54,560 nucleotides of DNA from positions 1 to 54,560 of the IMG/VR virus record IMGVR_UViG_3300032373_000010. One strand, given 5' to 3'. The notes under the pieces are model-generated. The model saw nothing but the letters and a program-made list of their open reading frames with translations. It ran no database searches and was not told where the DNA came from. The stretch is from a virus. Its lineage: Duplodnaviria > Caudoviricetes. Positions 6,857-54,140 of the stretch are shown here, in pieces (the stretch's first letter is position 1; each line of letters starts with the position of its first letter). The position numbers were made by a program, and so were the translations under genes.

Positions 6857-6858
6857 CT

Positions 6859-26157: not shown

Positions 26158-27213
26158 CTAGGCGATCACCTGCATGCTGACCATGGCGCCGGGGCGGCGC
26201 GGGACGGGCAGCGGACGGCTGTGGGCGAGGGCGATCATTTGGCTCGGGTCCTCGTTCTCCCAGCTCTTGGAGAAACGCTCACCCTGGAACTTGCGCCCCT
26301 GGAGAGCCTTCATGTCTGGGATCGCGCCGTAGTAGAGCGTGAACTCGGCGGCGGCGCCCTCGGCGACGAACTCGACGAACTTGTCGCGGATCAGCGGGGT
26401 GCTGACACCGGCCACGGCCACCGTGCGGGAATACTCCCAGCACTCGACGCCGCAGAACTGGCCGAGGTAGATCACGCCCTCGTTGGAATACTGCTGCTGC
26501 AGGGTCAAGTTGCCCGTGTCGAGCTTGGGGCCCTGACCGAGGTTGCCCTGGATCTTGAGGATCTTGCGGAAGGCGGCGGCGGCGCCGGCACCCATGATCG
26601 CGTCCTTGAGGCCGAGGCCCACGGCGTCGCTGAGGAGCTTCTTGACGAGGTGGAAGTTCTCCTCGGGGTCGGGCAGCGTCGGATCCGCGTCGTCCCAGAA
26701 GGTCGTCAGCGTGACGTTGTTCGCCGCAGGCTTGGGGTAGGTGATCGTGAAGTGCTCGTTCGGGCTGACCGAGTAGCTCACGACGCCCGTCAGCGAGAGA
26801 GCGCAGAGGTATTCCTCGGCGTTCGTGATCGCGTCGGCCATGACTTGCATGTCGCGCGCAATGTGCTGCTGGAGCGCCGAGACTTGCATGCCCGCACCCG
26901 GGCTGAAGATCACCGTGCCGGGGCGACGGTTGAAGAGCAGCCCGCTGGGGGTGAAGGGGCGCTTGACCCGAATGTTGGGCGCCGAGACCGTCTGGAAGGT
27001 CTCGCTGTGCCCGTCGATCAGGAGCGCGGCGCCGTTCTTCCGCACGAAGGGAGCGACCTCGCGGCCCTTCGTGAGGACCGAAAGCTCAATGTCCTCGGTC
27101 GGCAGGGTGACGTGCCGGCCATAGAGGCGCCGCTTGAGGAACTGGTTGGGCGACTTGATCTCGTTGACCAGCGGCGTGAGGCTGGTCCACTTGAGTTCGG
27201 TGATCGTGGACAT
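26158..27213 (-). CDS. Major capsid protein (lambda gpE-like)
   Basis: VAPFV, AITNAEEYLCALSLTG and C-terminal SKSW..EDPS...AHSRPLPVP match the Phage_cap_E pattern. Confidence 0.9.
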   Translation of the reverse strand: MSTITELKWTSLTPLVNEIKSPNQFLKRRLYGRHVTLPTEDIELSVLTKGREVAPFVRKNGAALLIDGHSETFQTVSAPNIRVKRPFTPSGLLFNRRPGTVIFSPGAGMQVSALQQHIARDMQVMADAITNAEEYLCALSLTGVVSYSVSPNEHFTITYPKPAANNVTLTTFWDDADPTLPDPEENFHLVKKLLSDAVGLGLKDAIMGAGAAAAFRKILKIQGNLGQGPKLDTGNLTLQQQYSNEGVIYLGQFCGVECWEYSRTVAVAGVSTPLIRDKFVEFVAEGAAAEFTLYYGAIPDMKALQGRKFQGERFSKSWENEDPSQMIALAHSRPLPVPRRPGAMVSMQVIA

Positions 27214-33608: not shown

Positions 33609-34127
33609 TTACGCTTCGACGGGCTTCTCGGCGGCCTTCTTCCGAGCCTTGGCGCGGGCCAGGGCGTCGGCCTTCTTCTTGGCCGCCGTGTGGGCGGGCT
33701 TCGCAGTCGGCTTCGGCTTCGGCTTCTTGCCCGGCGCCTTCTTCTTGGCTGCGGCCTTCTTCTTCTTCGCGGGCGCCTTCTTCTTGGCTGCGGTCTTCTT
33801 CTTCGCGGGCGCCTTCTTCTTCTTGGCCGGCGCCTCAGAGGCCGGGACGCACGAGATCACCAGGCCGCCCGTGATCGAGGTGCGCTTGCGGAAGACGCAG
33901 CCCTTGGGTGCCTGAGGCTTGGCGTTACGCAGCGCCGAGTTCAAGCGGTTGTGGGCCTGCTTGGGGGTCACCCCGTCCTCGGCGGCCAGCTCCAGGGACT
34001 CACCCTCGGCGAGGCCCTTCATGGCCTCGATCAGCCCCGCATAGCGGCTGGGTCGCCCTGGGGACCGCTCCGCGAACTTGACGCTCTTGGTCTTCTTCTT
34101 CTTGTATTTGACTTTGGTATCGGTCAC
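33609..34127 (-). CDS. Histone H1-like basic DNA-binding protein
   Basis: C-terminal (A/P)AKKK repeats; GTGA overlap with polA. Confidence 0.8.
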   Translation of the reverse strand: MTDTKVKYKKKKTKSVKFAERSPGRPSRYAGLIEAMKGLAEGESLELAAEDGVTPKQAHNRLNSALRNAKPQAPKGCVFRKRTSITGGLVISCVPASEAPAKKKKAPAKKKTAAKKKAPAKKKKAAAKKKAPGKKPKPKPTAKPAHTAAKKKADALARAKARKKAAEKPVEA

Positions 34128-36494: not shown

Positions 36495-37067
36495 CTACTC
36501 TTCGAGCGAGGCCTCGTATTCGATCAACTCGTCCAGCGCCGAGCCCGGGAAGAATGCCTCCTTCTCGTCGTCGCTGAGGATCTCCGCCAGCTCGATCGCG
36601 GGGACCTCGCGCTGGTAGTTGATCTTCGTGAAGGGCTTGCTCGCCCGGGTCTCGATAATCCGGTTCTTGACCTCAATGTAGGTCCCGCAGAGCGGCTGAT
36701 CGTCGTCGAGGATCGCGTAGAAGTTCTCCTCGGTCACGTCGTTCTCGGGCAGCCCGAGGATCTTCGACAAGAATGCCTTGACGTTGCCCAGGAAGCTGTC
36801 GTGCTTCGTCCACATGGAGTGGCACGGGCTTTCGCCGACCTTGTGGCCGTCCCCGTCGTCGTCGTCGAAGACGTGAATGATCGTCTTTTCGACGAACAGG
36901 CCGACGCCGCTCTTGCGGGTGTCGTCCATTTTCACGAAGTCGATCCGCTGGAGATAGTGTCCAGCCTTCTCCCAGTTGGAGTCAAGGGAGGCCTTGGCGT
37001 CCTTGAGCCCCTTGGCGTGCTTGCGTGCGAGTTCAAGGCTTCGCTGGCCTTTGGTCATTTCAGTCAT
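36495..37067 (-). CDS. Putative single-stranded DNA-binding protein
   Basis: Position between helicase and polA; beta-rich core; acidic C-terminal tail; AAGG RBS. Confidence 0.6.
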   Translation of the reverse strand: MTEMTKGQRSLELARKHAKGLKDAKASLDSNWEKAGHYLQRIDFVKMDDTRKSGVGLFVEKTIIHVFDDDDGDGHKVGESPCHSMWTKHDSFLGNVKAFLSKILGLPENDVTEENFYAILDDDQPLCGTYIEVKNRIIETRASKPFTKINYQREVPAIELAEILSDDEKEAFFPGSALDELIEYEASLEE

Positions 37068-37161: not shown

Positions 37162-39408
37162 CTACCCGAAGCGGTCTGTCATAAGTGCTTGAGCGGCAGT
37201 GCTGAGCTTCTTGTTTTGGAATCCTCGCTCCCGCAGGACAGCGGTAGGAAATACCTTAGGGAGGTGGGGCGCATAGGTCGCGTAGATCAGTTTCTGCCGG
37301 TTGCCTGTGGTCTGGTGGATATAGAGAGCGTCGTTAAGGGACGCAGCCAGGAGCATGTCGTCGAACTCGCTAGTGGCGCAGGTGTAGGCGGAGACTTGCG
37401 AAGCCTCCTGACCATTGCGGTGCATGCGCCCCAGGGTCTGCTCAGCCAGCTTGGCCGAGCGGGGCCACTGCACGAAGAGTTCCTGATTGAATGCCTGGAG
37501 GTTCTTGCCCGTGCCGTGGCTGCGCATGCTGGCGACGATCTTGCGGCCTCGGTTCTTTGGGTCGAGGATCGCGGCGTTGGCTGCGGCGCCCGCGGGACAG
37601 TGCAGCGGGTCCAGCCCGGCCTCCCTGAGGGCCTCGGTAAGCCAGACACCCATGCCCTTGTGGTAGATCCACATGATCGCGCCTTGGTCCTTCTTGAGCG
37701 AGGAGGCCCACTTCACGGCATGGCGAATCTTGTAGTCGCAGACGCGCACCACGCGATCGTTGCGGAGGCTCCTGGTGATCCTCCGATCCAGTTCCTTCGA
37801 GGCGCCTTTGAAGGCCCGCTTTTCGAGGATCAGCTCCCGAAGCTCCACGGCGAGCACCTTGTGGTCGGCCCACAGGCGATAGAGCCCCGTGCCGACGTTG
37901 GCCCCCCCGTGGGTGCTCATGTCGTGACCCACTAGCATGGGCGTGTCTAGGCCGCTGCGCCCGTGGTCCTCGATCCACTTGCGAAGCTCGGAGGAGTATT
38001 CCTGCCCGGCGCCGTGGTGCTCCCGGGCGAGGTCAAGGATCTCCTCGGCCACCGATTCGGACACGTCGCTGCGCTCAGCGAATTGCTCGGGGGTCGGGAA
38101 GGTGAGTTCGTTGTAGAAGCCGGCGCTGAGTTCGTAGAGCCATTTGTAGGTGTGGATCGGGTGCTCGATCTCGTCTTCGTTGGGGGTGCGCCAGAGTTCC
38201 ACGACTTGCTTCTGGAGGCGGGTCAGTTCCGCCCACCCCTCGTGGGTCGAGGGGGACTTCACAGGCTGGTTGTGGATCACCAAAGAGGGCTTGATCTCGG
38301 CGTCGCCGGTCGCGGTCACCCCGGGGCAGCTCTTGAGTCGTAGTTTGTAGGCCATGCGGAATCCTGCTGTGTCTTCGGAGATTGTTTCGGCGGGGAAGTT
38401 GCGCTCTGCCCAGTGGACCAGCGGCATGATCGGGCCGGTCGCCTCGCTTGAGCAGGCGTCGGAGTCGATCTTCGTGGCCCATTCGGAGGCGAGGTTGGCG
38501 GCCAGCGGGAGCGGGCAGTATTCGCCCAGGCACCAGCGGATAAGGTGGTAGTAATCTTTGATCGTCTTGGAAGTGATCGTGCCAGAGAGGACGCAGCCCT
38601 GCGGCCCGTGCTCCCTGACGTAGCCCATGAGCCGCTTGGTGCGGGCCGCCCGTGGGTTGCCGAGTGCGTCGGCCTCGTCCGCAATGATCAGCTCCGGGGC
38701 CATGGCTTCGAGGACCTCGGAGGTGTCCTTCGTAGAGAGGCAGGAGTAGGGCAGAATGTAGAGCCCCCTCTTGCCGCTGGTGGCGAGCATTCGGCGGGCG
38801 CCGGGAGGCTTGCCGCCCATGACGTGGATCGGGTAGTTCACGTCGATCCTGCGTCGAGCGAAGGGGAAGTCGTCCCGCACGAGCTGACCCAGGACGGAGC
38901 TGGGCACCAGGAGTAGGACGCGCTTGAGCCCTCGGCGGAAGGCGCTCGCGGCGATAGCCTGGGTCACCATGGTCTTGCCCCAGCCGACGCCGATCGGGGC
39001 AAAGAGTCCGTTGCGCTGCTCGTAGGACCGGATCGCTTCGCACTGGACCCGCCACATGCGGAAGCCGTCAGCGTAGGGTCGGGCCAGGACTCGCTTCGAG
39101 TTGAACTCCTCGACCTCCTCGTCGGTCATGGAGGGCACAAGCTCTAGGCCAATGATCCGATTGATCTCGGCATACTGCCCAGGGTCGGCAAGGAGGCGAG
39201 CGCGGTCGCGCCGGGCGTCCATGCTCATGCGAGGGGCCACCTTCTGCTGGGGAGGGCGGGGCCTCTTAGGCGGGGCCTGCGGCTCGTTGAGCTTGTCCCC
39301 CATGAGCCTCGCGGCCCTGATCGCTTTGACGCGCTTAATGAGCGCGTTGCGCTTGGCACGGGCGATCAGGGCCTTCTTAGCCCTCGCTCTTTCGAGGAGG
39401 TCGGCCAC
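37162..39408 (-). CDS. SF2 (SNF2-like) helicase
   Basis: VGWGKT, IADEAD, LSGT, GTGKNLQ, EQTLGRMHRNGQ; start set at GTG 39408 (TAGTG overlap). Confidence 0.88.
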   Translation of the reverse strand: MADLLERARAKKALIARAKRNALIKRVKAIRAARLMGDKLNEPQAPPKRPRPPQQKVAPRMSMDARRDRARLLADPGQYAEINRIIGLELVPSMTDEEVEEFNSKRVLARPYADGFRMWRVQCEAIRSYEQRNGLFAPIGVGWGKTMVTQAIAASAFRRGLKRVLLLVPSSVLGQLVRDDFPFARRRIDVNYPIHVMGGKPPGARRMLATSGKRGLYILPYSCLSTKDTSEVLEAMAPELIIADEADALGNPRAARTKRLMGYVREHGPQGCVLSGTITSKTIKDYYHLIRWCLGEYCPLPLAANLASEWATKIDSDACSSEATGPIMPLVHWAERNFPAETISEDTAGFRMAYKLRLKSCPGVTATGDAEIKPSLVIHNQPVKSPSTHEGWAELTRLQKQVVELWRTPNEDEIEHPIHTYKWLYELSAGFYNELTFPTPEQFAERSDVSESVAEEILDLAREHHGAGQEYSSELRKWIEDHGRSGLDTPMLVGHDMSTHGGANVGTGLYRLWADHKVLAVELRELILEKRAFKGASKELDRRITRSLRNDRVVRVCDYKIRHAVKWASSLKKDQGAIMWIYHKGMGVWLTEALREAGLDPLHCPAGAAANAAILDPKNRGRKIVASMRSHGTGKNLQAFNQELFVQWPRSAKLAEQTLGRMHRNGQEASQVSAYTCATSEFDDMLLAASLNDALYIHQTTGNRQKLIYATYAPHLPKVFPTAVLRERGFQNKKLSTAAQALMTDRFG

Positions 39409-39671
39409 TAGGAGGAGGCCTGCCCTGCCATGAGCGCGCGCCCAGTCCGTTGAGTCAGGGTCAGCAGGCGGCGACGCACCCGAGCGCGCTTGGTGTGGGG
39501 GAGGCCCTTCCACTGCGCCTTGAGGTTGACGTAGGTCGTCCGCGAGATCTTCTGGATCCTGCGGTGACGCTCGGCTGCGCTGAGGCTGTGGGCCCCTCGC
39601 GCCTTGCTGACGCTGATCATGGCGATAGCCACGGCTGCGCGGGAGAGTTGCTTGGAGGTGCGTGAGTTCAT
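39408..39671 (-). CDS. Hypothetical basic protein
   Basis: AAAGGA RBS; coupled to the helicase gene. Confidence 0.65.
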   Translation of the reverse strand: MNSRTSKQLSRAAVAIAMISVSKARGAHSLSAAERHRRIQKISRTTYVNLKAQWKGLPHTKRARVRRRLLTLTQRTGRALMAGQASS

Positions 39672-39768: not shown

Positions 39769-41601
39769 CTAGCCGACGATCACCATGCCCGCGAGGGGGC
39801 GCAGGGCCGCCAGGAGGGCCTTCTCGTCGGGGGTCGCCGCGCTGTTCGCGGTGAGGTAGCCCGTGCCGAGTTCCTCAGCGAGGTCACCCGCAGCGGCGCA
39901 AACGGCGTCGCGCCGCTTGAAGGGGTCGAGGGCGTAGAAGCTCTCCTCGCCGGAGGCTTCGGCCAAGCTCGTGCCGAAGGTGTGGAGGACGGTCGAGAGT
40001 TCCGTCACCTTGTTGGTGCCCCGGGCGACGTTGCAGTCGATCAGGAGGGTGAAAGACTTCTTGGGTCGGCCTCGGCTCTTCTTGGCTGCGGGCTCGGCCT
40101 TCTTCTTCGGGGCTGCCTTAGGGGCGGGCTCGGGCTCCTCCTCGACTTCGGGCTCCTCCTCGACTTCGGGCTCCTCCTCGACTTCGGGCTCCTCCTCGAC
40201 TTCGGGCTCGGGGGCAGGCGCGTCCGCGACCTTGGCCTCGACCAGGCCCCCGACCTCCACGCCACCAGCGTCGTCGTCGTCCTCGCCAACCCAGACGATC
40301 GTGGTGCCGTCGCGCTCAATGAAGAACGCGGCGCTGGTCAGGCGGCCCGCCTTCTTCGACTTAATGTCGCACATTTTGCAGGGCCCGGCCTTGGAGTTGA
40401 ACCCGGAACCCTTGCACGCCCGGCAGGTGGGCTCAGCCCAGGGCGGGGTGTCGCCCTCGAAGGTCACGGGGACGTGCTCGGGCTCTTTGGGCTTGGGGGC
40501 CGGCTTGGGACGGGGCTTGGGCTTGGGCTTGGCTGCTGAGGGCTTGCCCTTACCGGCAAGCGCTTTCCGCTTGGCTGCCTTCGCCGCCAACTTCGCTGCA
40601 ACTGACATATTTGATTCCTTACTTCGGGGTTGAGGGGCTGATATTACCCCGGGGGTCTGACACTCCACAACAGGAAGTGGCATTTTGTTTCTGCGTTCGG
40701 TTCTGCGCCTGTATTGCTCGGGGCTGCGTCGCCCGGAGCAGATCTTCTGGAAGGTGCAGGGGCCGTATTTCATACAGACGCCGGAGCCCTCCTTAGGGCC
40801 TGGCACGTCCTTCCAGTCCTCGATCTTACGGACCCGGCGAAGCTCATGCGCCATAGGGACTACGGTGGAGGTCCACCAATCTTGAATTTCCTGGCGGGGA
40901 ACGGGCGCCGAGAGCGTCCGCTTTACCGCGAGGTTCTCCGGGTCCTTAGAGGCGAAGTTGTGAATGAAGGTCACAGTCTCGGGAGGCGGCTCGTCTCGCT
41001 GGAGGGCCTCGAAGATCAGGCTGAAGCCGTAGGTCAGCATTTGGTTGTTCTTCGCGAGGGCCTTGGCTGTCTTGCGCCAGGGGCTGCGGTTCTTCTTGCC
41101 GGTCTTGTGGTCCTCTACCACGTCACGAGCTGAGACGTAGTCCCGGTAACCCATGAGGGTTATCGCACCGTCCTCGCCCTCCCCGGGGGCTATCGAAATG
41201 TCGAAGCGGGATTCGATCCGACCCTCGGGGCTCTTGATCAGGACCCCACCGTCGATCGCAGCCGTGGTGAGCTTCTGGATCATGGCGGCTTCGGCGTCGC
41301 TGATCGAGCGCTCGATCCCCTCGTCGGCGCCGAACTTGCTGACCACGGTCGTCCACGGGAGCGTGCGCCCCATGATCTTGCGGGCCTCTGGGTAGAGGTC
41401 GGGGGTCTGGAGGTCGTCGGTGGCTAGGTAGCGCTCCCAGACCTCGTGGAGGACTTCCCCGAAGGTGCGGGGGTCGGGTCGGCGGATCTTCTCGGGGAGA
41501 CGCAGGACCTTCTGGAAATACCACTTGACCTTGCAGTCGAGGGCCGTGTCGAGCTGGGTGGCGCTGAGGACGAGGGGCTTGCGGCGGGGCTTCCCGCTCA
41601 C
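39769..41601 (-). CDS. PD-(D/E)XK Cas4/RecB-like exonuclease with long low-complexity C-terminal extension
   Basis: SATQLD..LDC..KW, FGEVLH, GYRD, DHKT, QMLTY, CMKYGPCTFQKIC; start at GTGA overlap 41601. Confidence 0.85.
   Translation of the reverse strand: MSGKPRRKPLVLSATQLDTALDCKVKWYFQKVLRLPEKIRRPDPRTFGEVLHEVWERYLATDDLQTPDLYPEARKIMGRTLPWTTVVSKFGADEGIERSISDAEAAMIQKLTTAAIDGGVLIKSPEGRIESRFDISIAPGEGEDGAITLMGYRDYVSARDVVEDHKTGKKNRSPWRKTAKALAKNNQMLTYGFSLIFEALQRDEPPPETVTFIHNFASKDPENLAVKRTLSAPVPRQEIQDWWTSTVVPMAHELRRVRKIEDWKDVPGPKEGSGVCMKYGPCTFQKICSGRRSPEQYRRRTERRNKMPLPVVECQTPGVISAPQPRSKESNMSVAAKLAAKAAKRKALAGKGKPSAAKPKPKPRPKPAPKPKEPEHVPVTFEGDTPPWAEPTCRACKGSGFNSKAGPCKMCDIKSKKAGRLTSAAFFIERDGTTIVWVGEDDDDAGGVEVGGLVEAKVADAPAPEPEVEEEPEVEEEPEVEEEPEVEEEPEPAPKAAPKKKAEPAAKKSRGRPKKSFTLLIDCNVARGTNKVTELSTVLHTFGTSLAEASGEESFYALDPFKRRDAVCAAAGDLAEELGTGYLTANSAATPDEKALLAALRPLAGMVIVG
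40130..40209. repeat. 18-bp coding tandem repeat, about 4.4 copies (EPEVEE)
   Basis: TCGGGCTCCTCCTCGACT repeated exactly four times plus a partial copy. Confidence 0.95.
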
Positions 41602-41945
41602 GCCCAGTCCCCCAGCCGAGTGAAGACCGGCGTGCGCCCACCCACCCACGCGCCGATCACGTTGAACTCGAAATACTCCAGCGCCTCGTCGGGGTCCATG
41701 CCCTGCTCCTCGTAGCCCTTGAGGACCTTGTCCATGTCGTAGAGGGCGCACACTTCCATGCCGAAGCGGTAGGCCACGCCGATCAGGGCGTGGTCCAAGC
41801 CGTCGCAGCAGAGCAGGTCGGGGTGCTCCTCGGCGAGGCGCTCGCGCAGGGTCGGCTTGTCGTCCTCCGGCGCGTCGTTGCACGAGGGGCACACCAGCTC
41901 CTGCTGGCAGGACTTGCACTCCTCTCCGTAGGCGTTGGTGATCAT
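41598..41945 (-). CDS. Conserved phage hypothetical protein
   Basis: DGLDHALIG...YD..KV...GM...EALEYFEFNVIGAWVG..TP motif that I recognise from other phages. Confidence 0.75.
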   Translation of the reverse strand: MITNAYGEECKSCQQELVCPSCNDAPEDDKPTLRERLAEEHPDLLCCDGLDHALIGVAYRFGMEVCALYDMDKVLKGYEEQGMDPDEALEYFEFNVIGAWVGGRTPVFTRLGDWA

Positions 41946-41950
41946 GCGGG

Positions 41951-42166
41951 TTAACCCTGCCCTCTGCGCCGAAGCTCCTCGACGCACTCCTGGCAGATCC
42001 CGCCCTCAGGGTCGTGCTTGACGAAGGCCCGGTCCCAGAGGTGGCCGCAGAGGCACTGATCCGTAGGCCTGCCCTCGTCGTCCAGCTCAACGATATGGTT
42101 TGGGCGCTTGGCGATCTTCTGGGTTGAGGTCTCAGCGCGCGGCAGGGTCTTGACTTCAATGCTCAC
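41951..42166 (-). CDS. Small zinc-finger protein
   Basis: H..CLCG...CQEC; GTGA overlap. Confidence 0.65.
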   Translation of the reverse strand: MSIEVKTLPRAETSTQKIAKRPNHIVELDDEGRPTDQCLCGHLWDRAFVKHDPEGGICQECVEELRRRGQG

Positions 42167-42468
42167 TCAGAGCCTCCTAGAGCAAGCCTCAAGTGCTTGA
42201 TCGCGTCACAGACAGGAAGCAAACGGACCTCCCGCCACGATCGACCAAGGAGGATACACGCGGCCTCCCTGACGCTAAGTCCTCCCCTCTCAGCCAGCCG
42301 CTCCGGGGACTGACCGTGGTTGGCCTGGCACCGGCGGCGACACTCCTCTGTCGTGAACAGCCCCATGGGCATTGAGGGCGGGTGCTCGTAGTAGCGGGTG
42401 CGGCCTCTGTTGGGAGGGTCCTTCGGAATAGCCTCACGCATGATCGGCATGGTCTTGACTTCGCTCAT
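42163..42468 (-). CDS. Hypothetical protein
   Basis: NHGQSPERLAERGGLS motif recurrent in phages; ATGA overlap. Confidence 0.7.
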   Translation of the reverse strand: MSEVKTMPIMREAIPKDPPNRGRTRYYEHPPSMPMGLFTTEECRRRCQANHGQSPERLAERGGLSVREAACILLGRSWREVRLLPVCDAIKHLRLALGGSE

Positions 42469-45131
42469 AGCTCAGAGTCCCCTCGCACCAGGGCGTCCAG
42501 TGCAGGGCACGGGAAGCCTTCCTTAATAGCCTGGCGTTGCACCAGGAGAATGTCGATCTCGTGCCACTCCTTATCCCCAAGCCCTGTCCTGTTGGGCAGC
42601 GTCCGAATCGAGGGGGTGCAGAGCACGAGCCCGCGCAGAGCCTTACGGACCCGAGCGGCAGTCAAGTGGGCGCTGACTGTCTTACTGAGGACATTGCGGA
42701 AGTAGTTCAGGATCACGCCCACCGTGACATGCAGCCTACCATTATAGACCGACATGCCGGGGTAGAGTGAGGTCCCTGACTTTACAGTCAGGTGTTGCAG
42801 CAAGGCAATGATCACCTCGATTACAATGCCCGCCGCGCCCTGGGTCCTCATGGGGTCGAGCAAGGTGGTGCCTCCGTTGCCCTCGACCAGGAAGCGCCCG
42901 CCGCGAGGCTTGCGCATGTTCTCCATGATCCAGAGGAAGTGCTTCGCCACGAGGAAGTCCCCCTGACCCTCGCCGTCTCCTGCGATCCAGCCGTCTGTGT
43001 GGTCGTGCCCCCCGAGGTTGACGAGGTGGCGGGTAGCCCGGTCCTTCACGTCAATGTGGAAGATCCGAATGGCGAGGGCGTTGCGGTCCTCGGGGCTCAT
43101 GTCGCGGTTTGAGCAGAGACCCATGACCACGTCGAGGTTGTTCGCCGTGAAGATCACTCGCACGGGGTTCTTGTTGTTCATGGGCGTCTTAAACTTGCGG
43201 TTGACGTAACGGGCCCCGCCGCCGACCAGCTCCCTGAAGGTGTCGGCCTGGTGCTTGCCGCCGTAGGTCTTCGGCCAACCCTCGTCCACGAGCAGGATCG
43301 GGGTGTTGACCAGGCCGGGCTGGAAGTCACCCACGAGGGTCTCGGCGCCCGCGACCTCGCATGTGTTGAAGCATTCCGCAAGCCCCTGGGGGATCATTTT
43401 CTTGCCGGCGCCGGCCTCTCCGTGAATGCTCAGGGCGCAGATCGCCCCGTCCTCGGGTCGAAGGGCCCAGGCGATCCAGTTGCAGACGGCCTCATACTCC
43501 TCGCCGCAGAGGGCCTTGAGCCACGCGGCAACGTGCTTGTTGAAGGTCGGCCTGAGGTCGGTCCTGCGGTGGAAGGTCGGGACGTGCAGGACGCTGTCGT
43601 AGCGGTCTATGCCCTTGATCCAGGCGCCCCCCGCGCTGGGCATGCCTACGATCCGCGAGACCAGCGTGCCGTGCTCCGCGAGGATCTCCGTGTGATTGAC
43701 CTGCCTGAATCCCTTGCCGTCCTTGGTGGGGACCTTGGTCTGAAGGAGCTGCCCCATTTTCAGGGCTCGGATCCTCGGGGCGACCATGGTGACCGCGACG
43801 CTCATGGGGTCGTAGGACCCGTCAGGGCGCATAATGTGGGCGCGCTTGTCTTCGGTGATCGCAATGAGGTGCTGGGTCGCAAAGTCCCGGGCTGTGTCCT
43901 CGTCACCCATGAGGGCCGCGTGGCTGCACCACCCGCGCATGCCGCTGACGATAGAGTCCAAGAGGTCTAGCACGTCCTCAGCGTCCTCGGCCTTCTTGGT
44001 CTCCCTGTGGCGCTCCTCGGCGTCCTCCCGGGCCCAGCAATACTCAATCGCATACCACAGGCGATCGGTCCAGTCGGGTGTGTCCTCGTCGGGATCGAGC
44101 TGGAGGACAGGGTCAAGGAACAGGCCGTAGACGTGCGCCTTGGTAGTGATCCTCTCACCGTCGTCGTCAAGCTGGTAGAGCATGGTAGACGCCTCGCCTA
44201 CCAGCTTCATAATCGAGGAGTCCCTACCCCCAACCTCTGCCAGGGGCGTGTCCTGGTAGAGGCAGGAGTAGCACCCGCGGCCTTTGAGGCGGCGCTTGGC
44301 TAGGAAGGCCCAGCGGCTCATGGTCTCCTTCCCTGTGCTGGCGCTGACGCTCGTCAGCAGCGCGAGGGCGTCGCTCATGTCTGGCTTGGGTTCGGCGTTC
44401 TCCCGGAGGGCGGCCTTGCCCGACTTACCGACCCTACCCAAGGTGCCGAGGTCCGCGACCGGCAGGACGTTCTCAAACTGCTCGATTACCTCGAAGTAGT
44501 CCTGCTCCCAAGTGATCTCGTTTGAGCCTTCGCGCACCACGGCAGCGGCGCGGAAGCAGCGGGTCCAGTCCGAGGTCGGGTATTGGAGGCCGGGCTTGTT
44601 CTCGGGGTCGCTGCTGAGGTAGCCCTCGGCGTCAATGTCGTCTAGGAGGATCCCCGCCTCGCGCAGGCGCTGCGTCAGCCAGCGGTGGTGTCCCTCCGCA
44701 GCCTCCACGTCCACGGGCTCGTCGAGGACGTAGACCAGCCGCGCGCCGTGGCTGGTGGTGTAGAGGACGGTCCACTCCATGCAGATCGAGTCCTCAGCCT
44801 CGGCGAGCTGGGTGAGCCACTCAGAGAGCGTCTCGGGCGTCCAGCCGGCATGGCCGGGCCGGTCGTAGTCGAAGACCAGCATGCGGATCCAGAGGGTCTC
44901 TCCGGCGTCCCTGAGCGACGTGATACTCGCCTTGCGGTAGCGCACCCACGGGAGGGTCTCAGGCGCGTAGCAGACGAAGTGCGCGTCGGTGAGGAAGATC
45001 TCCTCCCACAGCTCCTCGAAGGGAATCTGCCGAAGCTCCTTGCGGTCGGGCACTTCGTCTAGGTGCGCGGCGCCCTTCCAGGCTTTGCTGGAGAGAACGC
45101 CGACGTTGAAGTCGGTAGCGGATTTGTTCAA
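42465..45131 (-). CDS. AEP primase-polymerase fused to D5/DUF5906-like NTPase/helicase
   Basis: LVFDYD (DxD), YTTSHGARLVY, DWTR.FR; GGRD (PriCT-like); GEAGAGKK, LLVDE, VNRKF, IFTAN. Confidence 0.8.
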   Translation of the reverse strand: MNKSATDFNVGVLSSKAWKGAAHLDEVPDRKELRQIPFEELWEEIFLTDAHFVCYAPETLPWVRYRKASITSLRDAGETLWIRMLVFDYDRPGHAGWTPETLSEWLTQLAEAEDSICMEWTVLYTTSHGARLVYVLDEPVDVEAAEGHHRWLTQRLREAGILLDDIDAEGYLSSDPENKPGLQYPTSDWTRCFRAAAVVREGSNEITWEQDYFEVIEQFENVLPVADLGTLGRVGKSGKAALRENAEPKPDMSDALALLTSVSASTGKETMSRWAFLAKRRLKGRGCYSCLYQDTPLAEVGGRDSSIMKLVGEASTMLYQLDDDGERITTKAHVYGLFLDPVLQLDPDEDTPDWTDRLWYAIEYCWAREDAEERHRETKKAEDAEDVLDLLDSIVSGMRGWCSHAALMGDEDTARDFATQHLIAITEDKRAHIMRPDGSYDPMSVAVTMVAPRIRALKMGQLLQTKVPTKDGKGFRQVNHTEILAEHGTLVSRIVGMPSAGGAWIKGIDRYDSVLHVPTFHRRTDLRPTFNKHVAAWLKALCGEEYEAVCNWIAWALRPEDGAICALSIHGEAGAGKKMIPQGLAECFNTCEVAGAETLVGDFQPGLVNTPILLVDEGWPKTYGGKHQADTFRELVGGGARYVNRKFKTPMNNKNPVRVIFTANNLDVVMGLCSNRDMSPEDRNALAIRIFHIDVKDRATRHLVNLGGHDHTDGWIAGDGEGQGDFLVAKHFLWIMENMRKPRGGRFLVEGNGGTTLLDPMRTQGAAGIVIEVIIALLQHLTVKSGTSLYPGMSVYNGRLHVTVGVILNYFRNVLSKTVSAHLTAARVRKALRGLVLCTPSIRTLPNRTGLGDKEWHEIDILLVQRQAIKEGFPCPALDALVRGDSEL

Positions 45132-46970: not shown

Positions 46971-47586
46971 TGTTGGTCAATTCCTTTGCCAAAGTTTCCA
47001 AATACCAGTCAACGTCGCCGTGGCTGTCCTCAGGGAAGAGGTCGTAGACGCTCTTGCAACCGAGTCCGATCTCCGAGTCCAGATCCAAGTCCGCTGGCCC
47101 GATCAGCGCCTCGACAAATGCCTCGGCGTAGGCTTCGCTGCTGACCTCAATGGGTCGCACGCAGAAGTCAGGGCCGCCCTCACGGAGGTCACCCAGGGCG
47201 AACACCAGGCCCACGCTCTGGAAGTCCTTCTTGAGGCGCTCCCAGCGGCGCATGGCGCTCGCCAGGGCGGTCTGGGGGCAGAAGTCGGCCCACCACTGCT
47301 CGAAGGGCCAGACACGCCCGTAGCGAGAGAAGAGGTCCTGAATGTCTAGGGCTACCCGCGTGAGCTTGGCCTCGCCCCAGGACTGGGGGCATGTTGCTGT
47401 GGTCGTGTCAATCATGCTTGCCACCACGCCGCAAGATTCGAGCGGCACCAGCAAAGGGTAGGCGGGGTAAAGGGCCGGATCACGTAGCCGATTAGTTGGC
47501 GCACGGTCACGTCCAGCCGGATCGCGCAGCGTATGCAGACGTGCTTGGTCATACCGAGTCCTCGCCATACTTGCCGCTCGCGTCAA
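46963..47586 (-). CDS. Hypothetical protein (start uncertain)
   Basis: ORF in the early operon; true start probably downstream of 47586. Confidence 0.55.
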   Translation of the reverse strand: MTRAASMARTRYDQARLHTLRDPAGRDRAPTNRLRDPALYPAYPLLVPLESCGVVASMIDTTTATCPQSWGEAKLTRVALDIQDLFSRYGRVWPFEQWWADFCPQTALASAMRRWERLKKDFQSVGLVFALGDLREGGPDFCVRPIEVSSEAYAEAFVEALIGPADLDLDSEIGLGCKSVYDLFPEDSHGDVDWYLETLAKELTNNE

Positions 47587-47746
47587 AGCCTGGGCATGGG
47601 CACCACCGCTTGCTGCAGAGGGCCTTGTCGATCTCGACTTGCGACTGGGTGCCGTCTTCGTGGATCATGGTGGCGTTGGCCTTGGCATAGCCTCGGTTGT
47701 GCTGGCCGAGGACGTGGCCGCAGTGCTTACAAAGGAGGTCTACCAT
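47549..47746 (-). CDS. Small zinc-binding protein
   Basis: CKHCGH...H...C...CPC. Confidence 0.65.
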   Translation of the reverse strand: MVDLLCKHCGHVLGQHNRGYAKANATMIHEDGTQSQVEIDKALCSKRWCPCPGFDASGKYGEDSV

Positions 47747-47940
47747 TGCTTTTCTTCCATGGCGCTCAGCCTGGCCTCTAGGTCAGAGAGGCGCGCTTCC
47801 AGTCTCTCGCGGCGCCTCTTCTTAGAGGCGGCTAGCTTGCGCTGCTTGTCTGCCCTTGAGCCGCTGCCGCAGACTACGCACCCGTCTAGTCCTCGGTCGT
47901 GGCCGAACCTCCTGCATTGTGATTTTGCTTTGCTGGTCAT
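47740..47940 (-). CDS. Small zinc-finger/coiled-coil protein
   Basis: C..GH...CVVCG; flanked by 15-bp direct repeats. Confidence 0.6.
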   Translation of the reverse strand: MTSKAKSQCRRFGHDRGLDGCVVCGSGSRADKQRKLAASKKRRRERLEARLSDLEARLSAMEEKQW

Positions 47941-48095
47941 TGCTTTTCTTCCTTGAGGCGCAGCAACTCAATCGCGCGCTTCTTACTTACCCGCCCGGTG
48001 CTTCCGCACGCCAGGCACTTCCTCTTCTTACCGTGGCAGATAGGGCACGTTACATTACCCTTCGGACACCTGCCAGACTTGCCGCGTTTACTCAT
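47937..48095 (-). CDS. 52-aa zinc-finger protein (not in ORF track)
   Basis: MSKRGKSGRCPKGNVTCPICHGKKRKCLACGSTG...; ATGA overlaps at both ends. Confidence 0.65.
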   Translation of the reverse strand: MSKRGKSGRCPKGNVTCPICHGKKRKCLACGSTGRVSKKRAIELLRLKEEKQ

Positions 48096-48646
48096 GTCTC
48101 CCCCTTACCAAAGTGTTCGGCTACGTGGCGATAGAGCCCCCATGTGCTCTTGCTCGTTAGGGTCGCCTTTACGTTCCGAGTCCACTCGTCGAGTCCGTGC
48201 AAGCGGTCCCAGGCGTTGGTGACGGTCATGGCCTCAAGGGGCACCTCGATCCGGGATCGGGCGTCGTCGTGGGGTCGGACGACAACATGCCCATTGGGCC
48301 CCCTGTGGGTAACCTGCCCCAGGAAGTTGTAGTTGGCCAGGACCTCGTTGCCTATCACCACGAACTCGCGGCAGCGAACGAGCGCGCCCTCGGCAACGGT
48401 GGCTGCCTTGCGGTAGCGCCCGACCTCCTCCTCCAACCGACAGAAAGCGGAGTAGCCCTCTCGGGAGCGCACTCGCTCCTCTGCCTGCCTTTCGCGATCC
48501 TGAAGGATCTTGAACATAGGCTCAAAACACTCCGAACCGTCGAGTCCGTGGCGCAAGTAAGCGCGCTCCAGGGCCGCCCACGCGTCGAAGTCGCCGGGGT
48601 TGGCGTGGGCCTGGCGCTGCAGGGCTTCGATCTTGGTGAGGCTCAC
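48092..48646 (-). CDS. Hypothetical protein
   Basis: Coupled ORF; TPR-like N-terminal helix pair. Confidence 0.6.
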   Translation of the reverse strand: MSLTKIEALQRQAHANPGDFDAWAALERAYLRHGLDGSECFEPMFKILQDRERQAEERVRSREGYSAFCRLEEEVGRYRKAATVAEGALVRCREFVVIGNEVLANYNFLGQVTHRGPNGHVVVRPHDDARSRIEVPLEAMTVTNAWDRLHGLDEWTRNVKATLTSKSTWGLYRHVAEHFGKGET

Positions 48647-49080
48647 AAGGCACCTAGCCAGCGCAAGAGGTGCCTTGTCAGCCCCAGGACTGTGATCCCT
48701 GCGGCTGTCACGAGCACGCAGGCGAGCACATTCCCCATGCTTTGGTCAAACGCCAGTTGCCTTGCTAGCTTCTCCTTCTCAATCTCCGCCAAAGTAGTCC
48801 TGATCTCGGCGGGGGAGGGGAAGTCGTAGTAGTCCTCTCGCGCGCCGCATGTCGGACAGCCCGAGTGAAACTCACGCAAGCAGAGCTTGTGTAGCGCGGT
48901 GCCGCAGTCGCACGACCACGAGGCCTCCGCCTTGCAGAGCGCGCAGACAACGAGTCCGGGTTTCGAGTCCGCAGACACAGTCAGATCGCAGCGGTGATCG
49001 GGGAGCCCGTGGAGGAAGTCGCCGCAGGGCCCGCGCTCGCGCACGACCTTCCTCTCGAAGGCCTTGCCGAAGTCGATCAT
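48643..49080 (-). CDS. RING/PHD-like (C4HC3) zinc-finger membrane protein
   Basis: CALC-x7-CDC-x4-H-x2-C-x7-CPTC followed by a C-terminal TM helix. Confidence 0.7.
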   Translation of the reverse strand: MIDFGKAFERKVVRERGPCGDFLHGLPDHRCDLTVSADSKPGLVVCALCKAEASWSCDCGTALHKLCLREFHSGCPTCGAREDYYDFPSPAEIRTTLAEIEKEKLARQLAFDQSMGNVLACVLVTAAGITVLGLTRHLLRWLGAL

Positions 49081-49310
49081 TGGGATCCGTCCGAGTCTGC
49101 GAGGTAGAAGGTGAGCCCGTCCCTGCCATTGACGATCCAGCCGCCCTCAACGCGCTTACGCGCTGTGTAGTTCCCGAGGTCCTCCCAGCCCTCCGCCTCA
49201 AGGCGCTGCCTTCTGCGCTCCTTCCACGAGGGCCTGCTAGCCAGGAAGTAGATCAAGCCAACGCAGGCCAGGATAAGGAGGCCAGGCCCCCAAGGTCGGT
49301 CGTGGCTCAC
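49077..49310 (-). CDS. Small membrane protein
   Basis: N-terminal TM segment; coupled at both ends. Confidence 0.6.
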   Translation of the reverse strand: MSHDRPWGPGLLILACVGLIYFLASRPSWKERRRQRLEAEGWEDLGNYTARKRVEGGWIVNGRDGLTFYLADSDGSQ

Positions 49311-49741
49311 TAGTCAATCCTCGCTTCCGAGATCAAGTCTCCCTGAAACCAGACTTGCACGCGGCGCTGGCCGTCGCTAACGCAGACCCCAATCGACAGG
49401 CCAGCCTTGAGGGCGTCAGCGAGTCCGGGAATCGAGTCCGGGGGCGTAGTCCTCGTCTCGGGGCGTGTCGGGTCCTCACCCACTCCGGGCCAGGGTAGGA
49501 CCTCGTGGGCGTGGGCCAGGCGCCGGAGCCCCCTCAGGGGATCCTCGTTAGGGGGCAGGAATGGCAGGCTCTCGACCATATCCATAGCGGGATCATGGAA
49601 GGCCTCGCGCTTCAGGGCGCGCTCTACCAGGGCCCTGTCAGGATCTAGGGCCCTGGCCCTGGCCCTGATCCTCTCGGCTCTCGCCTTACGGGCCCTCGCC
49701 CTCTTAGCCTTCGCTATCAGCCGCTCGCGCTTACTCTCCAC
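49310..49741 (-). CDS. Hypothetical protein
   Basis: Arg/Ala-rich N-terminus; GGGAGG RBS. Confidence 0.55.
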   Translation of the reverse strand: MESKRERLIAKAKRARARKARAERIRARARALDPDRALVERALKREAFHDPAMDMVESLPFLPPNEDPLRGLRRLAHAHEVLPWPGVGEDPTRPETRTTPPDSIPGLADALKAGLSIGVCVSDGQRRVQVWFQGDLISEARID

Positions 49742-49888
49742 GCTGGCCCTCCCATTCCCTCAGCTCCTCGCGCTGGCGCCTACGGCCCTTGCGATAGCCT
49801 GCCTTCCGATCGGGCTTTCGGGTCTTTCCGTCAACGCCTGAGCCGCTGCCGCCACCGGGCTTGTCGTTTGGCTTGTCGCTTTGCGTGC

Positions 49889-50080
49889 TCACCAGTCCAC
49901 CCCCTTGCTATCCCAGTCTAGGCCGGGACTATCCCCGAACATAAGCGCCCAAACGTCTGGCTGGCCTTGCTTGGCCTTAGCCTTTTCCATTGCCCTCTTG
50001 GCCTTGGCTTTAAGAATTGCTGCCTTTAGCCTTCTTCGCTTTTCTTCTTCAGACACTGAGTCCACCTTTCGAGTCCGCAA
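49889..50080 (-). CDS. Hypothetical basic protein (start uncertain)
   Basis: Short ORF beginning inside the GAGTCC array. Confidence 0.45.
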   Translation of the reverse strand: MRTRKVDSVSEEEKRRRLKAAILKAKAKRAMEKAKAKQGQPDVWALMFGDSPGLDWDSKGVDW

Positions 50081-50128
50081 AATGAGTCCGGGTTTCGAGT
50101 CCGGGTTTCGAGTCCGGGATCGCAGTCT
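50058..50128. repeat. 13-bp-period array of GAGTCC (5 exact copies plus 1 degenerate)
   Basis: GAGTCC at 50058, 50071, 50084, 50097, 50110; CAGTCT at 50123. Confidence 0.95.
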
Positions 50129-50153
50129 ATACGATCCCCTGTCACTACCGCAA
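50124..50153 (-). promoter_or_regulatory. Putative sigma70-type promoter
   Basis: -35 TTGCGG (50153-50148), 18-nt spacer, -10 TAGACT (50129-50124); directly after the GCCCCC/GGGGGC hairpin at 50154-50180. Confidence 0.5.
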
Positions 50154-50190
50154 GCCCCCGCAGAATTACACTGAGGGGGCGCGGTGCCAG

Positions 50191-52218: not shown

Positions 52219-52415
52219 TAGGACAGATCCAGCAAGCTCTCAAGCTCCTCGCGGGGGATCTTGACCCCAGCGCGGCTCAGGGCCTCAAGCGCGCAAGTTA
52301 TGTCGCCAGCAGCTTGCCTGTCCAGCATGGCACTAGGAAGGGCCAGGCTGCGCGCTAGTTTGGTGGCAGCCTCGGTGAGATAGGTTAGGGCTTCGATCTT
52401 CTTGGCGTCTGACAT
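52218..52415 (-). CDS. Hypothetical early protein
   Basis: GGGAGG RBS inside the 132-bp repeat; MSD start. Confidence 0.7.
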   Translation of the reverse strand: MSDAKKIEALTYLTEAATKLARSLALPSAMLDRQAAGDITCALEALSRAGVKIPREELESLLDLS

Positions 52416-52538
52416 GGTAGCCTCCCTGGCTCGTTTGGGTATGTCTCCAATTATACGGATTGGAGTGTAAGTTTCCAGGGTAAACCGGGGAGTAATTTAA
52501 GTATTCCCCAAGTGTAACCCTGGCAGTAAGTTAGACCT
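52407..52538 (-). promoter_or_regulatory. 132-bp early-gene module, copy 1 (stop codon, hairpin, promoter, RBS, start)
   Basis: 129/132 identical to 52900-53031; TATAAT at 52455-52450; hairpin 52475-52523; GGAGG RBS. Confidence 0.85.
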
Positions 52539-52908
52539 TCGCGGAGATACCATAGGTTTCAAGCTCGCCCACGATTTGGTCTTGCACGCTGTCAAGCTCG
52601 CCTGTCCATTCCAGCGAAAAGGAACCGTCTCCATGATCCTCAGCGCTCGCGTTATCGTCGCCGGAGAGCTGTTGCAGAACGCTCAGGATTTGGGAGGGAT
52701 CGGCGTCTTTTGACTCTAGGTCCAGCCCGCAAAGCTCGCCCTCCTCTGGGGTCTCGCACTCGCTCAAGCCGTCCTCGTCGCACCCGTGCTCCTCGCACTC
52801 ATGGCAGAGGTCAGGGCTGGAAACGTCATTGCTGATTGCGGTCTCGAAACAATCGCGACAGGCGCAGGAAGTGTAACCGCTCGTAGAAATGATTCGCGTG
52901 TCTGACAT
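52531..52908 (-). CDS. Acidic Cys-rich early protein
   Basis: CACRDC...CHECEEHGC; bracketed by the two 132-bp repeats. Confidence 0.75.
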   Translation of the reverse strand: MSDTRIISTSGYTSCACRDCFETAISNDVSSPDLCHECEEHGCDEDGLSECETPEEGELCGLDLESKDADPSQILSVLQQLSGDDNASAEDHGDGSFSLEWTGELDSVQDQIVGELETYGISAKV

Positions 52909-53031
52909 GGTAGCCTCCTGGGCTCGTTTGGGTATGTCTCCAATTATACGGATTGGAGTGTAAGTTTCCAGGGTAAACCGGGGAGTAATTTAAGTATTCC
53001 CCAAGTGTAACCCTGGCAGTAACTTAGACCT
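52900..53031 (-). promoter_or_regulatory. 132-bp early-gene module, copy 2
   Basis: Near-identical to copy 1; TATAAT at 52948-52943. Confidence 0.85.
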
Positions 53032-53917
53032 CAAAAGTAGGGCAGGGCAGGCTATCGCGACACCTTGCGGACAAGGCCGGACCCTCAATCTCTTCCGGCT
53101 CGCGCTCGTCCGATTCGCTCTTTCCCCAGACCTCCCACTGGCTGCCATAGGCCCCCGGAGCGAAGAGAATCACCCAACCGTGATTGCTCGCGTGCTTGAG
53201 CACGTCTGACGCGTCGCTGGCGTAGACCTCGCACAAGGGCTCAGCCCCATACCCAAAGGCTGAGAGGTCTACGCCAAGGTAGTTCACGGGAGCGCTGTAT
53301 TCGCTGGCCTCAAGGTGTTCTACGTAGGGCGCGGGATCGCTCTCCACGCAATCGGCACAAGAGTAGTCTCCGTCTCCGATATAGCCCTTCATGATCCAGC
53401 CCCAGTGTTGAGACGTTGTGCCGAAAGCGCGGTTGCAATCGCAGACGAGGTAATCGTCCGGCCAATCGGTGGCGAATCCCTCTTGTTGGCATGCTTCCTC
53501 AAGTCCTTCCCACCCGTTCCAGTTTCCGAGGATAAGCCCAGACTCGCTGGGGCCCATGTTCTCGGCTTCGGCGTAGCCCTCGCAGAGGCGCCAATTTCCA
53601 GAGCCCTCAGAGGCAAGCCTACCGAGTAGTCGCACCATGATCGGGGCTGCCTTAGCCTGCCAGGCGTCTGGGGCCGCCTCAGGGCGCCTGAAGCCTACGT
53701 CATGGGGGGAAAGGCTATCAGCACCCGTCCAACGCGCCTCAAGGGCTCTCAGGCGTTCTAGGTAGGGCTTCTCTGCACCCCCTACCTTGCCGCAAGCGCA
53801 GCCCTGAGAGTAGGTAGGCCAGACATGGATACCCAAGCGACACTTGAGTTGAGCGGCAAGGGCCTTGTCTCCCATGCGCTGGGCCTTGCGCAAGCGGTTG
53901 ACCGTTGACGTGCTCAC
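53024..53917 (-). CDS. Hypothetical early protein
   Basis: 297 aa; GNWNG, CDC...CADC; GTGA overlap. Confidence 0.7.
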   Translation of the reverse strand: MSTSTVNRLRKAQRMGDKALAAQLKCRLGIHVWPTYSQGCACGKVGGAEKPYLERLRALEARWTGADSLSPHDVGFRRPEAAPDAWQAKAAPIMVRLLGRLASEGSGNWRLCEGYAEAENMGPSESGLILGNWNGWEGLEEACQQEGFATDWPDDYLVCDCNRAFGTTSQHWGWIMKGYIGDGDYSCADCVESDPAPYVEHLEASEYSAPVNYLGVDLSAFGYGAEPLCEVYASDASDVLKHASNHGWVILFAPGAYGSQWEVWGKSESDEREPEEIEGPALSARCRDSLPCPTFEV

Positions 53918-54057
53918 GACTTCACCGCTTCCTTGACCATGCTGCGGACAAGGCCGAAGGCTAGCAAGTGCTCAAGGCGCAAGGGGGGAGGCAGGATAGC
54001 GCTAAGGCCCTGGGCCTTGCGCAGGAGGTTCGTAGCGTGGGGAGAGAGGTCTGACAT
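53914..54057 (-). CDS. Small hypothetical early protein
   Basis: Start set at ATG 54057 (MSDLSP) by homology with the repeat modules. Confidence 0.6.
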   Translation of the reverse strand: MSDLSPHATNLLRKAQGLSAILPPPLRLEHLLAFGLVRSMVKEAVKS

Positions 54058-54140
54058 GGTGAGCGCCCTTTCGCGGTGCTGGGTATGTCTCCCATTATAC
54101 GAGCGGAGTGTAAGCGCGCAAGTAATTTCCAAATGTAAGG
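54049..54140 (-). promoter_or_regulatory. Degenerate third copy of the early promoter module
   Basis: Shares CTTACACTCC-N3/4-CGTATAAT-N-GGAGACATACCCA and CCATGTCAGAC; -35-like TTGCGC. Confidence 0.75.

Follow-up and report, generated by a model that had tools for sequence, protein, structure and literature searches.

The virus record IMGVR_UViG_3300032373_000010, analysed here over its full length of 54,560 bp (the window), is a complete tailed-phage genome with terminal repeats at its ends, and its minus strand carries genes from 54.1 down to 9.6 kb. In the early part of this gene series a six-letter word, GAGTCC on the plus strand, recurs at exact steps of 13 nt, and since the genes lie on the minus strand this word, which we refer to as the box, reads GGACUC(G) on the mRNA. 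The phased sense boxes in the window form five clusters, named A to E, all within 47.06–50.13 kb and confined to one operon, and they are a genuine cis-element, conserved and very far from random, in a clade of phages for which metagenomes are the only source. An earlier sequence-only reading had listed the copies of the box, and every position in that list was found again: 13 copies of GAGTCC at 47062/47075, 48178/48191, 48952/48965, 49421/49434, 50058, 50071, 50084, 50097 and 50110, with degenerate neighbours 13 nt further on (CGGTCC 48204, CAGTCA 48978, TAGTCC 49447 and CAGTCT 50123) or, in one cluster, 12 nt further on (AAGTCC 47087).

The features of the locus are collected in Table 1. 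Array A fills the stretch from the −10 region of a putative promoter to the first delayed-early start codon, and its last perfect box sits between the Shine–Dalgarno sequence (SD) GAAAGG and the probable GTG start. Clusters B to E lie inside four mutually unrelated open reading frames (ORFs), 83–330 nt away from any start codon. Each holds one dyad, GAGTCC-N7-GAGTCC, and three of these coding dyads share the codon phase that is translated as DSxxGL, with the fourth, in cluster D, translated as GLDEWT. In every cluster from A to E the 5′ unit, in the sense direction, is degenerate. The ORF that hosts cluster B encodes a 143-aa protein with an Arg-rich N-terminus, for which a look-up in a protein atlas returned no match and no model. 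The interval from cluster D to cluster E contains four short, Cys-rich ORFs of zinc-ribbon-like type (52, 66, 65 and 46 aa; 47412-48095, minus strand), which follow one another with ATGA stop/start overlaps. Exactly where ORFs 48643-49080 and 48092-48646 meet, a hairpin with 19-nt arms (89% complementary; 48637-48686) may serve the boxed operon as an internal attenuator or as a processing site.

Table 1. Features of the window, with the box clusters first. Units are written in the sense direction.
Feature	Position	Strand	Description	Basis
Main array A	50058..50128	−	Six units with an exact step of 13 nt, in the gap that separates ORF 50191-50631 from the first delayed-early gene: AGACTG 50128-50123; GGACTC at 50115-50110, 50102-50097, 50089-50084, 50076-50071 and 50063-50058	
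Cluster B	49421..49452	−	GGACTA, GGACTC, GGACTC at 13-nt steps, in ORF 49310-49741, 116-129 nt before its stop	
Cluster C	48952..48983	−	TGACTG, GGACTC, GGACTC at 13-nt steps, in ORF 48643-49080, 110-123 nt after its start	
Cluster D	48178..48209	−	GGACCG, GGACTC, GGACTC at 13-nt steps, in ORF 48092-48646, codon phase unlike that of B, C and E	
Cluster E	47062..47092	−	GGACTT 12 nt upstream, then GGACTC, GGACTC at 13 nt, in ORF 46963-47415	
Single sense box	47556..47561	−	Directly before a start codon (GAGGACTCGGTATG, ATG at 47552)	
First delayed-early gene with SD	49889..50070	−	SD GAAAGG 50070-50065, probable start GTG 50056-50054, 55-aa basic protein, pI 9.7	
Putative weak sigma-70-type promoter	50124..50153	−	−35 TTGCGG 50153-50148, 18-nt spacer, −10 TAGACT 50129-50124	
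GC-rich hairpin	50155..50179	−	CCCCC-N15-GGGGG, no U-tract, just past the stop of ORF 50191-50631	
Immediate-early region	52407..54101	−	Strong sigma-70-type promoter/leader units, no boxes	
DUF5906 primase-helicase-like protein	42465..45131	−	888 aa	Marker for finding relatives
Exonuclease	39769..42159	−		Family-library scans
SNF2-type helicase	37162..39513	−		Family-library scans
DUF669-like protein	36495..37067	−	190 aa, conserved in all relatives	
DNA polymerase	34124..36292	−		Family-library scans
Major head protein	26158..27213	−		Family-library scans
Tape measure	17886..22433	−		Family-library scans
Large terminase	6859..8274	+		Family-library scans

The dyad occurs eight times on the plus strand, in the sense orientation relative to transcription, and not once on the minus strand, as expected from the single orientation that the sequence-only reading had claimed. 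Its rough estimate of far fewer than one dyad by chance also holds, since dinucleotide shuffles contain 0.04 dyads on average and never more than one (none of 100 reaches eight). The hexamer as such is not enriched, with 57 copies on both strands of the genome against 54.9 ± 7.9 in shuffles, and its strand bias is local: 21 copies on the plus strand and one on the minus strand at 42–51 kb, against nine and 13 at 0–28 kb. Pairs of sense copies closer than 40 nt are spaced by 13, 26 or 39 nt only, and the antisense strand has no such pair. The four GANTC words are neither depleted nor enriched, and the idea that the boxes are CcrM-type methylation sites was dropped because these words occur at ordinary frequency.

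Codon-preserving (synonymous) shuffles were made of 23 minus-strand coding sequences (10,440 nt, 2000 shuffles), the comparison that had been proposed together with the sequence-only reading. Four coding dyads are observed, and the shuffles hold none in 1953 cases, one in 46 and two in a single case, so that not one reaches even three; the single word GGACTC, with 18 copies in coding sequence, averages 5.5 ± 2.1 in the shuffles (maximum 13). This excess, the exact 13-nt phase within unrelated ORFs and the use of two codon phases uphold the earlier view that the signal is one of nucleic acid and not of protein. A duplication of 13 bp would break the reading frame, so the runs inside ORFs must have been written by substitutions, and the spacing itself must therefore have been selected.

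Isolated relatives were sought by megablast with 46.0–51.5 kb and by tblastn with the primase, neither of which gave a match among 50,697 phage records; tblastn with the helicase against phage records gave one weak match. A scan of IMG/VR for three phased copies of GAGTCC returned 15 loci, three of which (L017, L018 and L023) encode a relative of the window's primase-helicase. The remaining 12 contigs hold single arrays and no relative of the window's ORFs, and were set aside as consistent with chance tandem repeats. Alignment of the primase-helicase brought in eight near-full-length relatives in viral contigs (27–37% identity by best segment) and one 56.8-kb contig of a metagenome-assembled genome (MAG), and a search of metagenome contigs with the same protein returned duplicates or fragments only. 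The replication and structural modules of the window are syntenic with those of its relatives. At E <= 1e-3 tblastn matches none of the early-region ORFs (45.1–54.6 kb) to any relative, early ORF families are common to two phages at most, and blastn of the early DNA against ten relatives gives no match.

Five very distant relatives (primase 24–37% identical) nevertheless have the same box, phase and strand 5′ of the primase gene, which strengthens the sequence-only reading. Counted in units, the runs measure 6, 3, 3, 3 and 2+1 in the window, 6, 3, 3, 6 in L027/G001, 5, 3 in G002, 3, 3 in L028/G003, 3, 4 in L030/G004 and 7 (perfect and degenerate units alternating), 3 in L037, and are thus mostly of three or six. 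Runs of three or more units number 16 on the sense strand of six phages and none on the antisense strand of 12 sequences; exact dyads over whole records number 10/0, 4/0, 3/0 and 1/0 (sense/antisense) and are found in the early region only. The boxes always lie 1.6–7.6 kb upstream of the primase-helicase gene and on the same strand; five other relatives have no dyad. When 43 units from the six phages were chosen as perfect GGACTC hexamers, with position +7 taking no part in the selection, that position proved to be G in 36 and the next A in 22, with the other positions varying. The unit is a heptamer, GGACTCG(a), and about six free letters on the sense strand, with seven of 13 positions fixed and spacers that diverge while the box stays. 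The primase tree, with its long branches and five unresolved forks, spreads the motif phages over the whole family, deepest branches included. The box is probably ancestral in the family and was replaced in some lineages and, as judged from these comparisons, its conservation is deeper than that of any early protein.

The setting of the boxes in the relatives is varied. In L027, three-unit runs span gene junctions (GAG GAC TCG TGA c ATG GAC TCG; GGACTCGAAGGAGG-N6-ATG), boxes at stop/start junctions end 3–24 nt before the SD or ATG, and six-unit arrays end 24 and 57 nt ahead of start codons. L025 has GGACTG and single copies of GGACTCG beside SDs, where the box reads GGACTCGGAAGGA-N8-ATG, twice. 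L031 and L029 carry CA-rich repeats (CCAAC, ACCAC) at the promoter-to-start position where others have boxes; these are tandem CCAAC, CAAC or ACCAC copies in 5′ leaders up to the start codon (4797-4890, 5679-5843, 5997-6032 and 7207-7236 in L031; 34-113 and 507-564 in L029), and the L029 leaders have no visible SD. Other kinds of repeat were noted beside these. L025 has CGCCTGAGCC arrays with a 10- or 14-nt period at 308-373, 663-709 and 1026-1117, upstream of a repeated promoter-like block TAGCGG...TATTCA, and a GGACTGTCTGAG element that recurs in leaders ahead of SDs. L028 has long 18-nt-period repeats (CAACGCCCGGGTCTACGG) within early ORFs at 5092-5288, 5429-5780 and 6803-7054, encoding hexapeptide-like ..GNAxVxG.. 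in multi-copy proteins of 155–171 aa. In L030, the ORF right after the box cluster (1417-1860; G004) has a GYEVSNTGRV motif, which we take to be typical of HNH/NUMOD homing endonucleases.

A natural variant of the window is present in the contigs of run X2; run X1 is a possible source of the window and not independent of it. Compared with the window, the X2 contigs carry 21 substitutions and lack 15 bp at 49613, inside the 143-aa ORF, and 13 bp at 50084, precisely one unit of array A. No GAGTCC hexamer is hit by any of the substitutions, and since about 0.5 would be expected to do so by chance this is not significant. The variant bears on the possibility that the boxes have no function and arose by tandem-repeat slippage together with chance or codon effects. 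Such an origin would suit a main array that differs by exactly one unit between natural variants, and other 13-bp tandem repeats with GAGTCC are indeed found in unrelated viral contigs, at the 12 of 15 loci set aside above. We regard it as very improbable and as effectively refuted, however, because the codon-preserving shuffles never reach even three coding dyads, the box is kept while its spacers diverge, the in-ORF runs cannot come from duplication of 13 bp and the feature is conserved in six phages that have no early DNA in common.

In the window the boxes start only past the immediate-early block, behind the GC-rich hairpin at 50179-50155, which may terminate the immediate-early unit or stabilise its 3′ end; hairpins precede clusters in L028 and G002 as well. 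The immediate-early block is likely to be a battery of strong promoters. Its promoter/leader unit, TGGAAA-N16-TATAAT ... AGGAGG ... ATG TCA GAC, is present in two near-identical 132-nt copies (52407-52538 and 52900-53031), two 21–22-nt pieces of it recur at about 54049-54101, and many immediate-early ORFs begin with MSD or MSE. The sequence-only reading had placed the start of the main array at the −10 of a putative promoter. The degenerate first unit of array A (AGACTG) does overlap the putative −10, TAGACT, but the promoter TTGCGG/TAGACT fails a consensus scan, and what suggests it is its likeness to the layout of L031 (TTGACG-N17-TAGACT, a repeat leader of four CCAAC, GAAAGG, ATG).

Another reading is at the level of double-stranded DNA; in it the boxes would be a polar operator with stoperator-like roadblocks. 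A phage DNA-binding protein would sit head to tail on the 13-bp units, the six-unit array blocking promoter escape and the three-unit runs stopping polymerase and so shutting off the delayed-early genes. An array that runs from the −10 over the initially transcribed region is in the classic position of an operator, and the delayed-early unit begins with genes for three small, strongly basic proteins (pI 9.7, 10.3 and 10.0). Sites in genes and at junctions, all in one orientation, are also described for the L5 stoperators (PMC9283540), and the lytic phage D29 provides a precedent in the repeats for Gp36 within gene 59.2 (PMC12266134). Several findings make us hold this reading as possible and no higher. 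Among the 57 distinct ORFs scanned there is no helix-turn-helix, ribbon-helix-helix (RHH) or Xis-like protein and no lysogeny module, although a very divergent protein could escape such a scan. Box and phase are kept though every early protein has been replaced, in contrast to the stoperators of Cluster A mycobacteriophages, which reportedly co-vary with their repressor. A step of 13 bp sets adjacent sites about 86 degrees apart on B-DNA. Finally, the MAG that holds L037 has two exact dyads in 8.7 Mb against two for a control pattern, so a host DNA-binding regulon is not visible there.

The family-library scans just mentioned compared the 57 distinct ORFs with Pfam and/or PHROGs and found no integrase, repressor, partition gene or RNA polymerase among them, nor any partition family. 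Above the cut-off Pfam matched none of 25 early ORFs and PHROGs none of the 10 early ORFs scanned there; no tRNA was found in the window, and Rfam had no match at the gathering score over its whole length. The DUF669-like protein is presumably a single-stranded DNA-binding protein. Inside the minus-strand late block two consecutive plus-strand ORFs, 28774-30294 (506 aa) and 30294-30923 (209 aa), are conserved in six and seven of seven genomes, respectively. The minus-strand ORFs that overlap them are conserved as well, so that the coding strand of the two is unsettled, and the 506-aa ORF could be the portal gene.

The 888-aa protein matches DUF5906 (E 1.5e-7, above the cut-off), has a P-loop and is kept in all relatives, and its gene contains four single sense boxes (42475, 43954, 44218 and 44788). 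Its constant place downstream of the boxes suggests that these could be replication-origin iterons or cis replication enhancers for a superfamily 3-type primase-helicase, with a hexamer on six units and half-sites of three; the alpha protein of phage P4, with its ori and crr repeats, is a known case. The distance of 1.6–7.6 kb to the family's shared marker, the DUF5906 domain with P-loop and the suitability of runs of three and six for a hexamer all agree with this. We consider it unlikely all the same, since the C-terminal 130 residues, where the origin-binding domain would be expected, are the least conserved part of the protein (13–31% identical to the window's) and contain no residues specific to the motif phages. 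Five separate clusters over 3 kb of coding DNA would be unusual for an origin, strict co-orientation with transcription is not something that iterons need, and GC skew is noisy in seven genomes, with no consistent switch at the clusters; an attempt to place the origin from GC skew was dropped as uninformative. Of the mechanisms listed in the sequence-only reading, iterons are accordingly weakened by the poor conservation of the primase C-terminal domain, parS-like sites have no support, there being no partition gene among the ORFs scanned, a staged DNA-injection signal has nothing in its support, and an operator with roadblocks and sites at the RNA level are both kept.

For the RNA level, folding of three arrays was no better than that of shuffles (z = +0.95, −1.33 and 0.00). 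The sequence-only reading had named GGA-containing sites for a CsrA-like or antitermination factor, and in its specific form this would mean host CsrA/RsmA-type sites on leader RNA, with GGA as the core, that either repress these genes or titrate the host regulator away. The GGA core never varies, the final box in the window overlaps the SD/start region, in L027 and L025 the box lies directly against the SD, and the MAG containing L037 encodes CsrA (69 bits, cut-off 27), although the binning of a phage contig in a MAG is no proof of host. A classic CsrA site leaves the invariant CUCG after GGA unexplained, however: these letters are as conserved as GGA itself, down to the unselected G at +7 in 36 of 43 units. 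GGA is mostly preceded by C, no hairpin presents it and no stable structure is seen, and odd runs of three are ill-suited to a dimer with two sites. Reading at the RNA level is kept in general, and this form of it we regard as improbable.

What we tentatively favour is that the boxes are a docking array, on the transcript or on the non-template strand, for an oligomeric regulator; we prefer it to the polar stoperator-like DNA operator, which is nearly as likely. On this view they form a code that regulates the delayed-early transcription unit in cis. A homo-oligomeric factor would bind runs of mostly three or six boxes, either in the nascent or early transcript or in the non-template strand exposed by the transcribing polymerase; at the six-box run in the leader it would govern either the translation or the read-through of the first delayed-early genes, and the three-box runs downstream would reload or reinforce it. 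The sequence specificity of the code, its phase, polarity, restriction to one operon and deep conservation are observed; that it is read as RNA or single strand, and by a reader that works in threes, is inferred. The argument starts from the exact 13-nt phase inside ORFs, which implies that neighbouring boxes are contacted together, and from the polarity of 16 independent runs, which implies a process with direction. The survival of the box through a full turnover of early proteins points to a slowly evolving reader in place of a phage repressor. The RNA level is favoured because of this survival, because other sense repeats occupy the same leader position in relatives such as L031 and because the arrays are unstructured, as would be expected of a single-stranded docking site. 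It is further favoured because 13 bp does not hold sites on one face of the helix, which is the weak point of the series.

The factor that reads the boxes is probably not among the fast-evolving early proteins and is more likely to evolve slowly, be it core machinery of the host, one of the host's RNA-binding regulators or a phage protein that is conserved. A bolder version, which we hold as rather unlikely, takes the boxes as an ancestral, family-wide single-strand code read in threes by a ring-shaped or filament-forming factor that travels with polymerase or awaits it. In that version, and at the same low odds, the reader would be conserved host machinery or an unrecognised conserved phage protein.

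Several observations weigh against the docking array. All the support listed for it, except the leader repeats of relatives and the failure of the arrays to fold, fits a polar DNA roadblock equally well. There are runs of four, five and seven units and a natural variant that is one unit shorter; the failed promoter scan at array A counts here too, and no promoter is visible before the L027 arrays. At 83–330 nt from start codons, clusters B to E cannot be explained by plain occlusion of ribosome sites. No candidate reader, RNA-binding or other, was found among the 25 early ORFs compared with Pfam or the 10 compared with PHROGs, and no RNA sequencing run carrying the phage was listed in the run search. 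The earlier proposal of one oligomeric factor on this operon is accordingly upheld in part: the exact phase in unrelated ORFs calls for contact with several boxes at once, but no binder was found, and for that reason the list of mechanisms does not narrow to one.

A search by gene content, made by clustering every ORF from seven complete or near-complete genomes, gave a single family limited to the four strongest motif phages, the 380-aa protein encoded after the terminase (8282-9424, plus strand). It has no Pfam or PHROG match, and its C-terminal signature W-A-Y-R..N, FCR..HG, PP(Y/F)H..CRT resembles, as we presume, that of the Mu F / SPP1 gp7 minor head proteins, for which it was rejected as the reader. 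Autoregulation by one type of protein is not supported, since the genes directly 3′ of arrays are unrelated and of mixed charge. Rho takes up 13 nt per subunit; a Rho loading site was dropped because the L027 units are G-rich. A sigma-E-like promoter, GGACTC-N17-TCTGA, fits clusters A and C only, an antisense to the tRNA T-arm fits the window's spacers only, and base-pairing to a fixed RNA partner was dropped because the degenerate units have no wobble pattern. A haloarchaeal host was dropped because the proteins have ordinary pI values.

Only in a few model phages is the timing of early gene expression understood in detail, and the code described here is precise and easily synthesised: a heptamer at a 13-nt phase on one strand, in runs mostly of three or six. 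As it is older than the genes around it, it offers a handle for fishing out the regulator. The boxes are also a test case for regulatory sites written into coding sequence and a marker of the delayed-early unit in related uncultured phages. Were the ring or filament version true, it would be a new processive control of early operons in phages, by antitermination or mRNA gating. In the literature searched, with supplementary files lying outside that search, there was no report of GGACTC direct repeats in phages or of the heptamer as a motif, and the word GGACTCG or CGAGTCC appears in one unrelated paper. Phased regulator-binding arrays are known as a kind, and the heptamer code is a new variation on them.

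Among known systems, the closest formal analogues on RNA would be the operators of TRAP, with 11 GAG/UAG triplets, and of HutP, with two sets of three NAG and thus threes and sixes. They are alike in having a short core, fixed spacing, free spacers, an unstructured leader and a copy number close to that of subunits. They differ in that the period here is 13 nt and not 5–7, the core is 7 nt, runs also lie deep in ORFs and no such protein was found among the ORFs scanned. RHH proteins bind direct-repeat sites such as the omega heptads, parC for ParR and the ACTC boxes for ParG of TP228. Like these operators and centromeres, the arrays are tandem repeats at a promoter with variable copy number, the binding there being cooperative, and the TP228 boxes even contain ACTC; unlike them, they have another period, additional coding clusters and strict co-orientation with transcription, and the window has no partition or RHH gene among its scanned ORFs.

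On DNA the nearest likeness is to the Cluster A stoperators of the L5 gp71 type, which are asymmetric 13-nt sites dispersed in genes and intergenic spaces with an orientation that strictly follows transcription (PMC9283540). The asymmetric site, the 13-nt unit, the dispersion in a transcription unit and the orientation are all shared. Stoperators, however, are single sites bound by a monomer, more than 20 of them over the whole genome (both arms) of temperate phages, whereas the boxes are tandem runs mostly of three or six in exact phase, over about 3 kb only and with seven of 13 positions fixed, in a genome with no repressor or integration genes among the 57 ORFs scanned, and the motif outlives the early proteins. 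The boxes also resemble the sites of D29 Gp36, lambda Xis and Streptomyces BldC, small MerR/Xis-like proteins that coat repeats cooperatively head to tail, in being short direct repeats, some of them coding. Gp36 binds GC-rich direct repeats, including four that lie in gene 59.2, and in this lytic phage it represses the genes downstream; the repeats are GCGGC cores at intervals of 15–21 nt that keep no fixed phase, and no rule for their orientation is stated (PMC12266134). In the window Pfam recognises no MerR/Xis-like ORF among the 25 early ORFs. The element works most like stoperators and the Xis/BldC/Gp36 type of coating, and is a member of neither.

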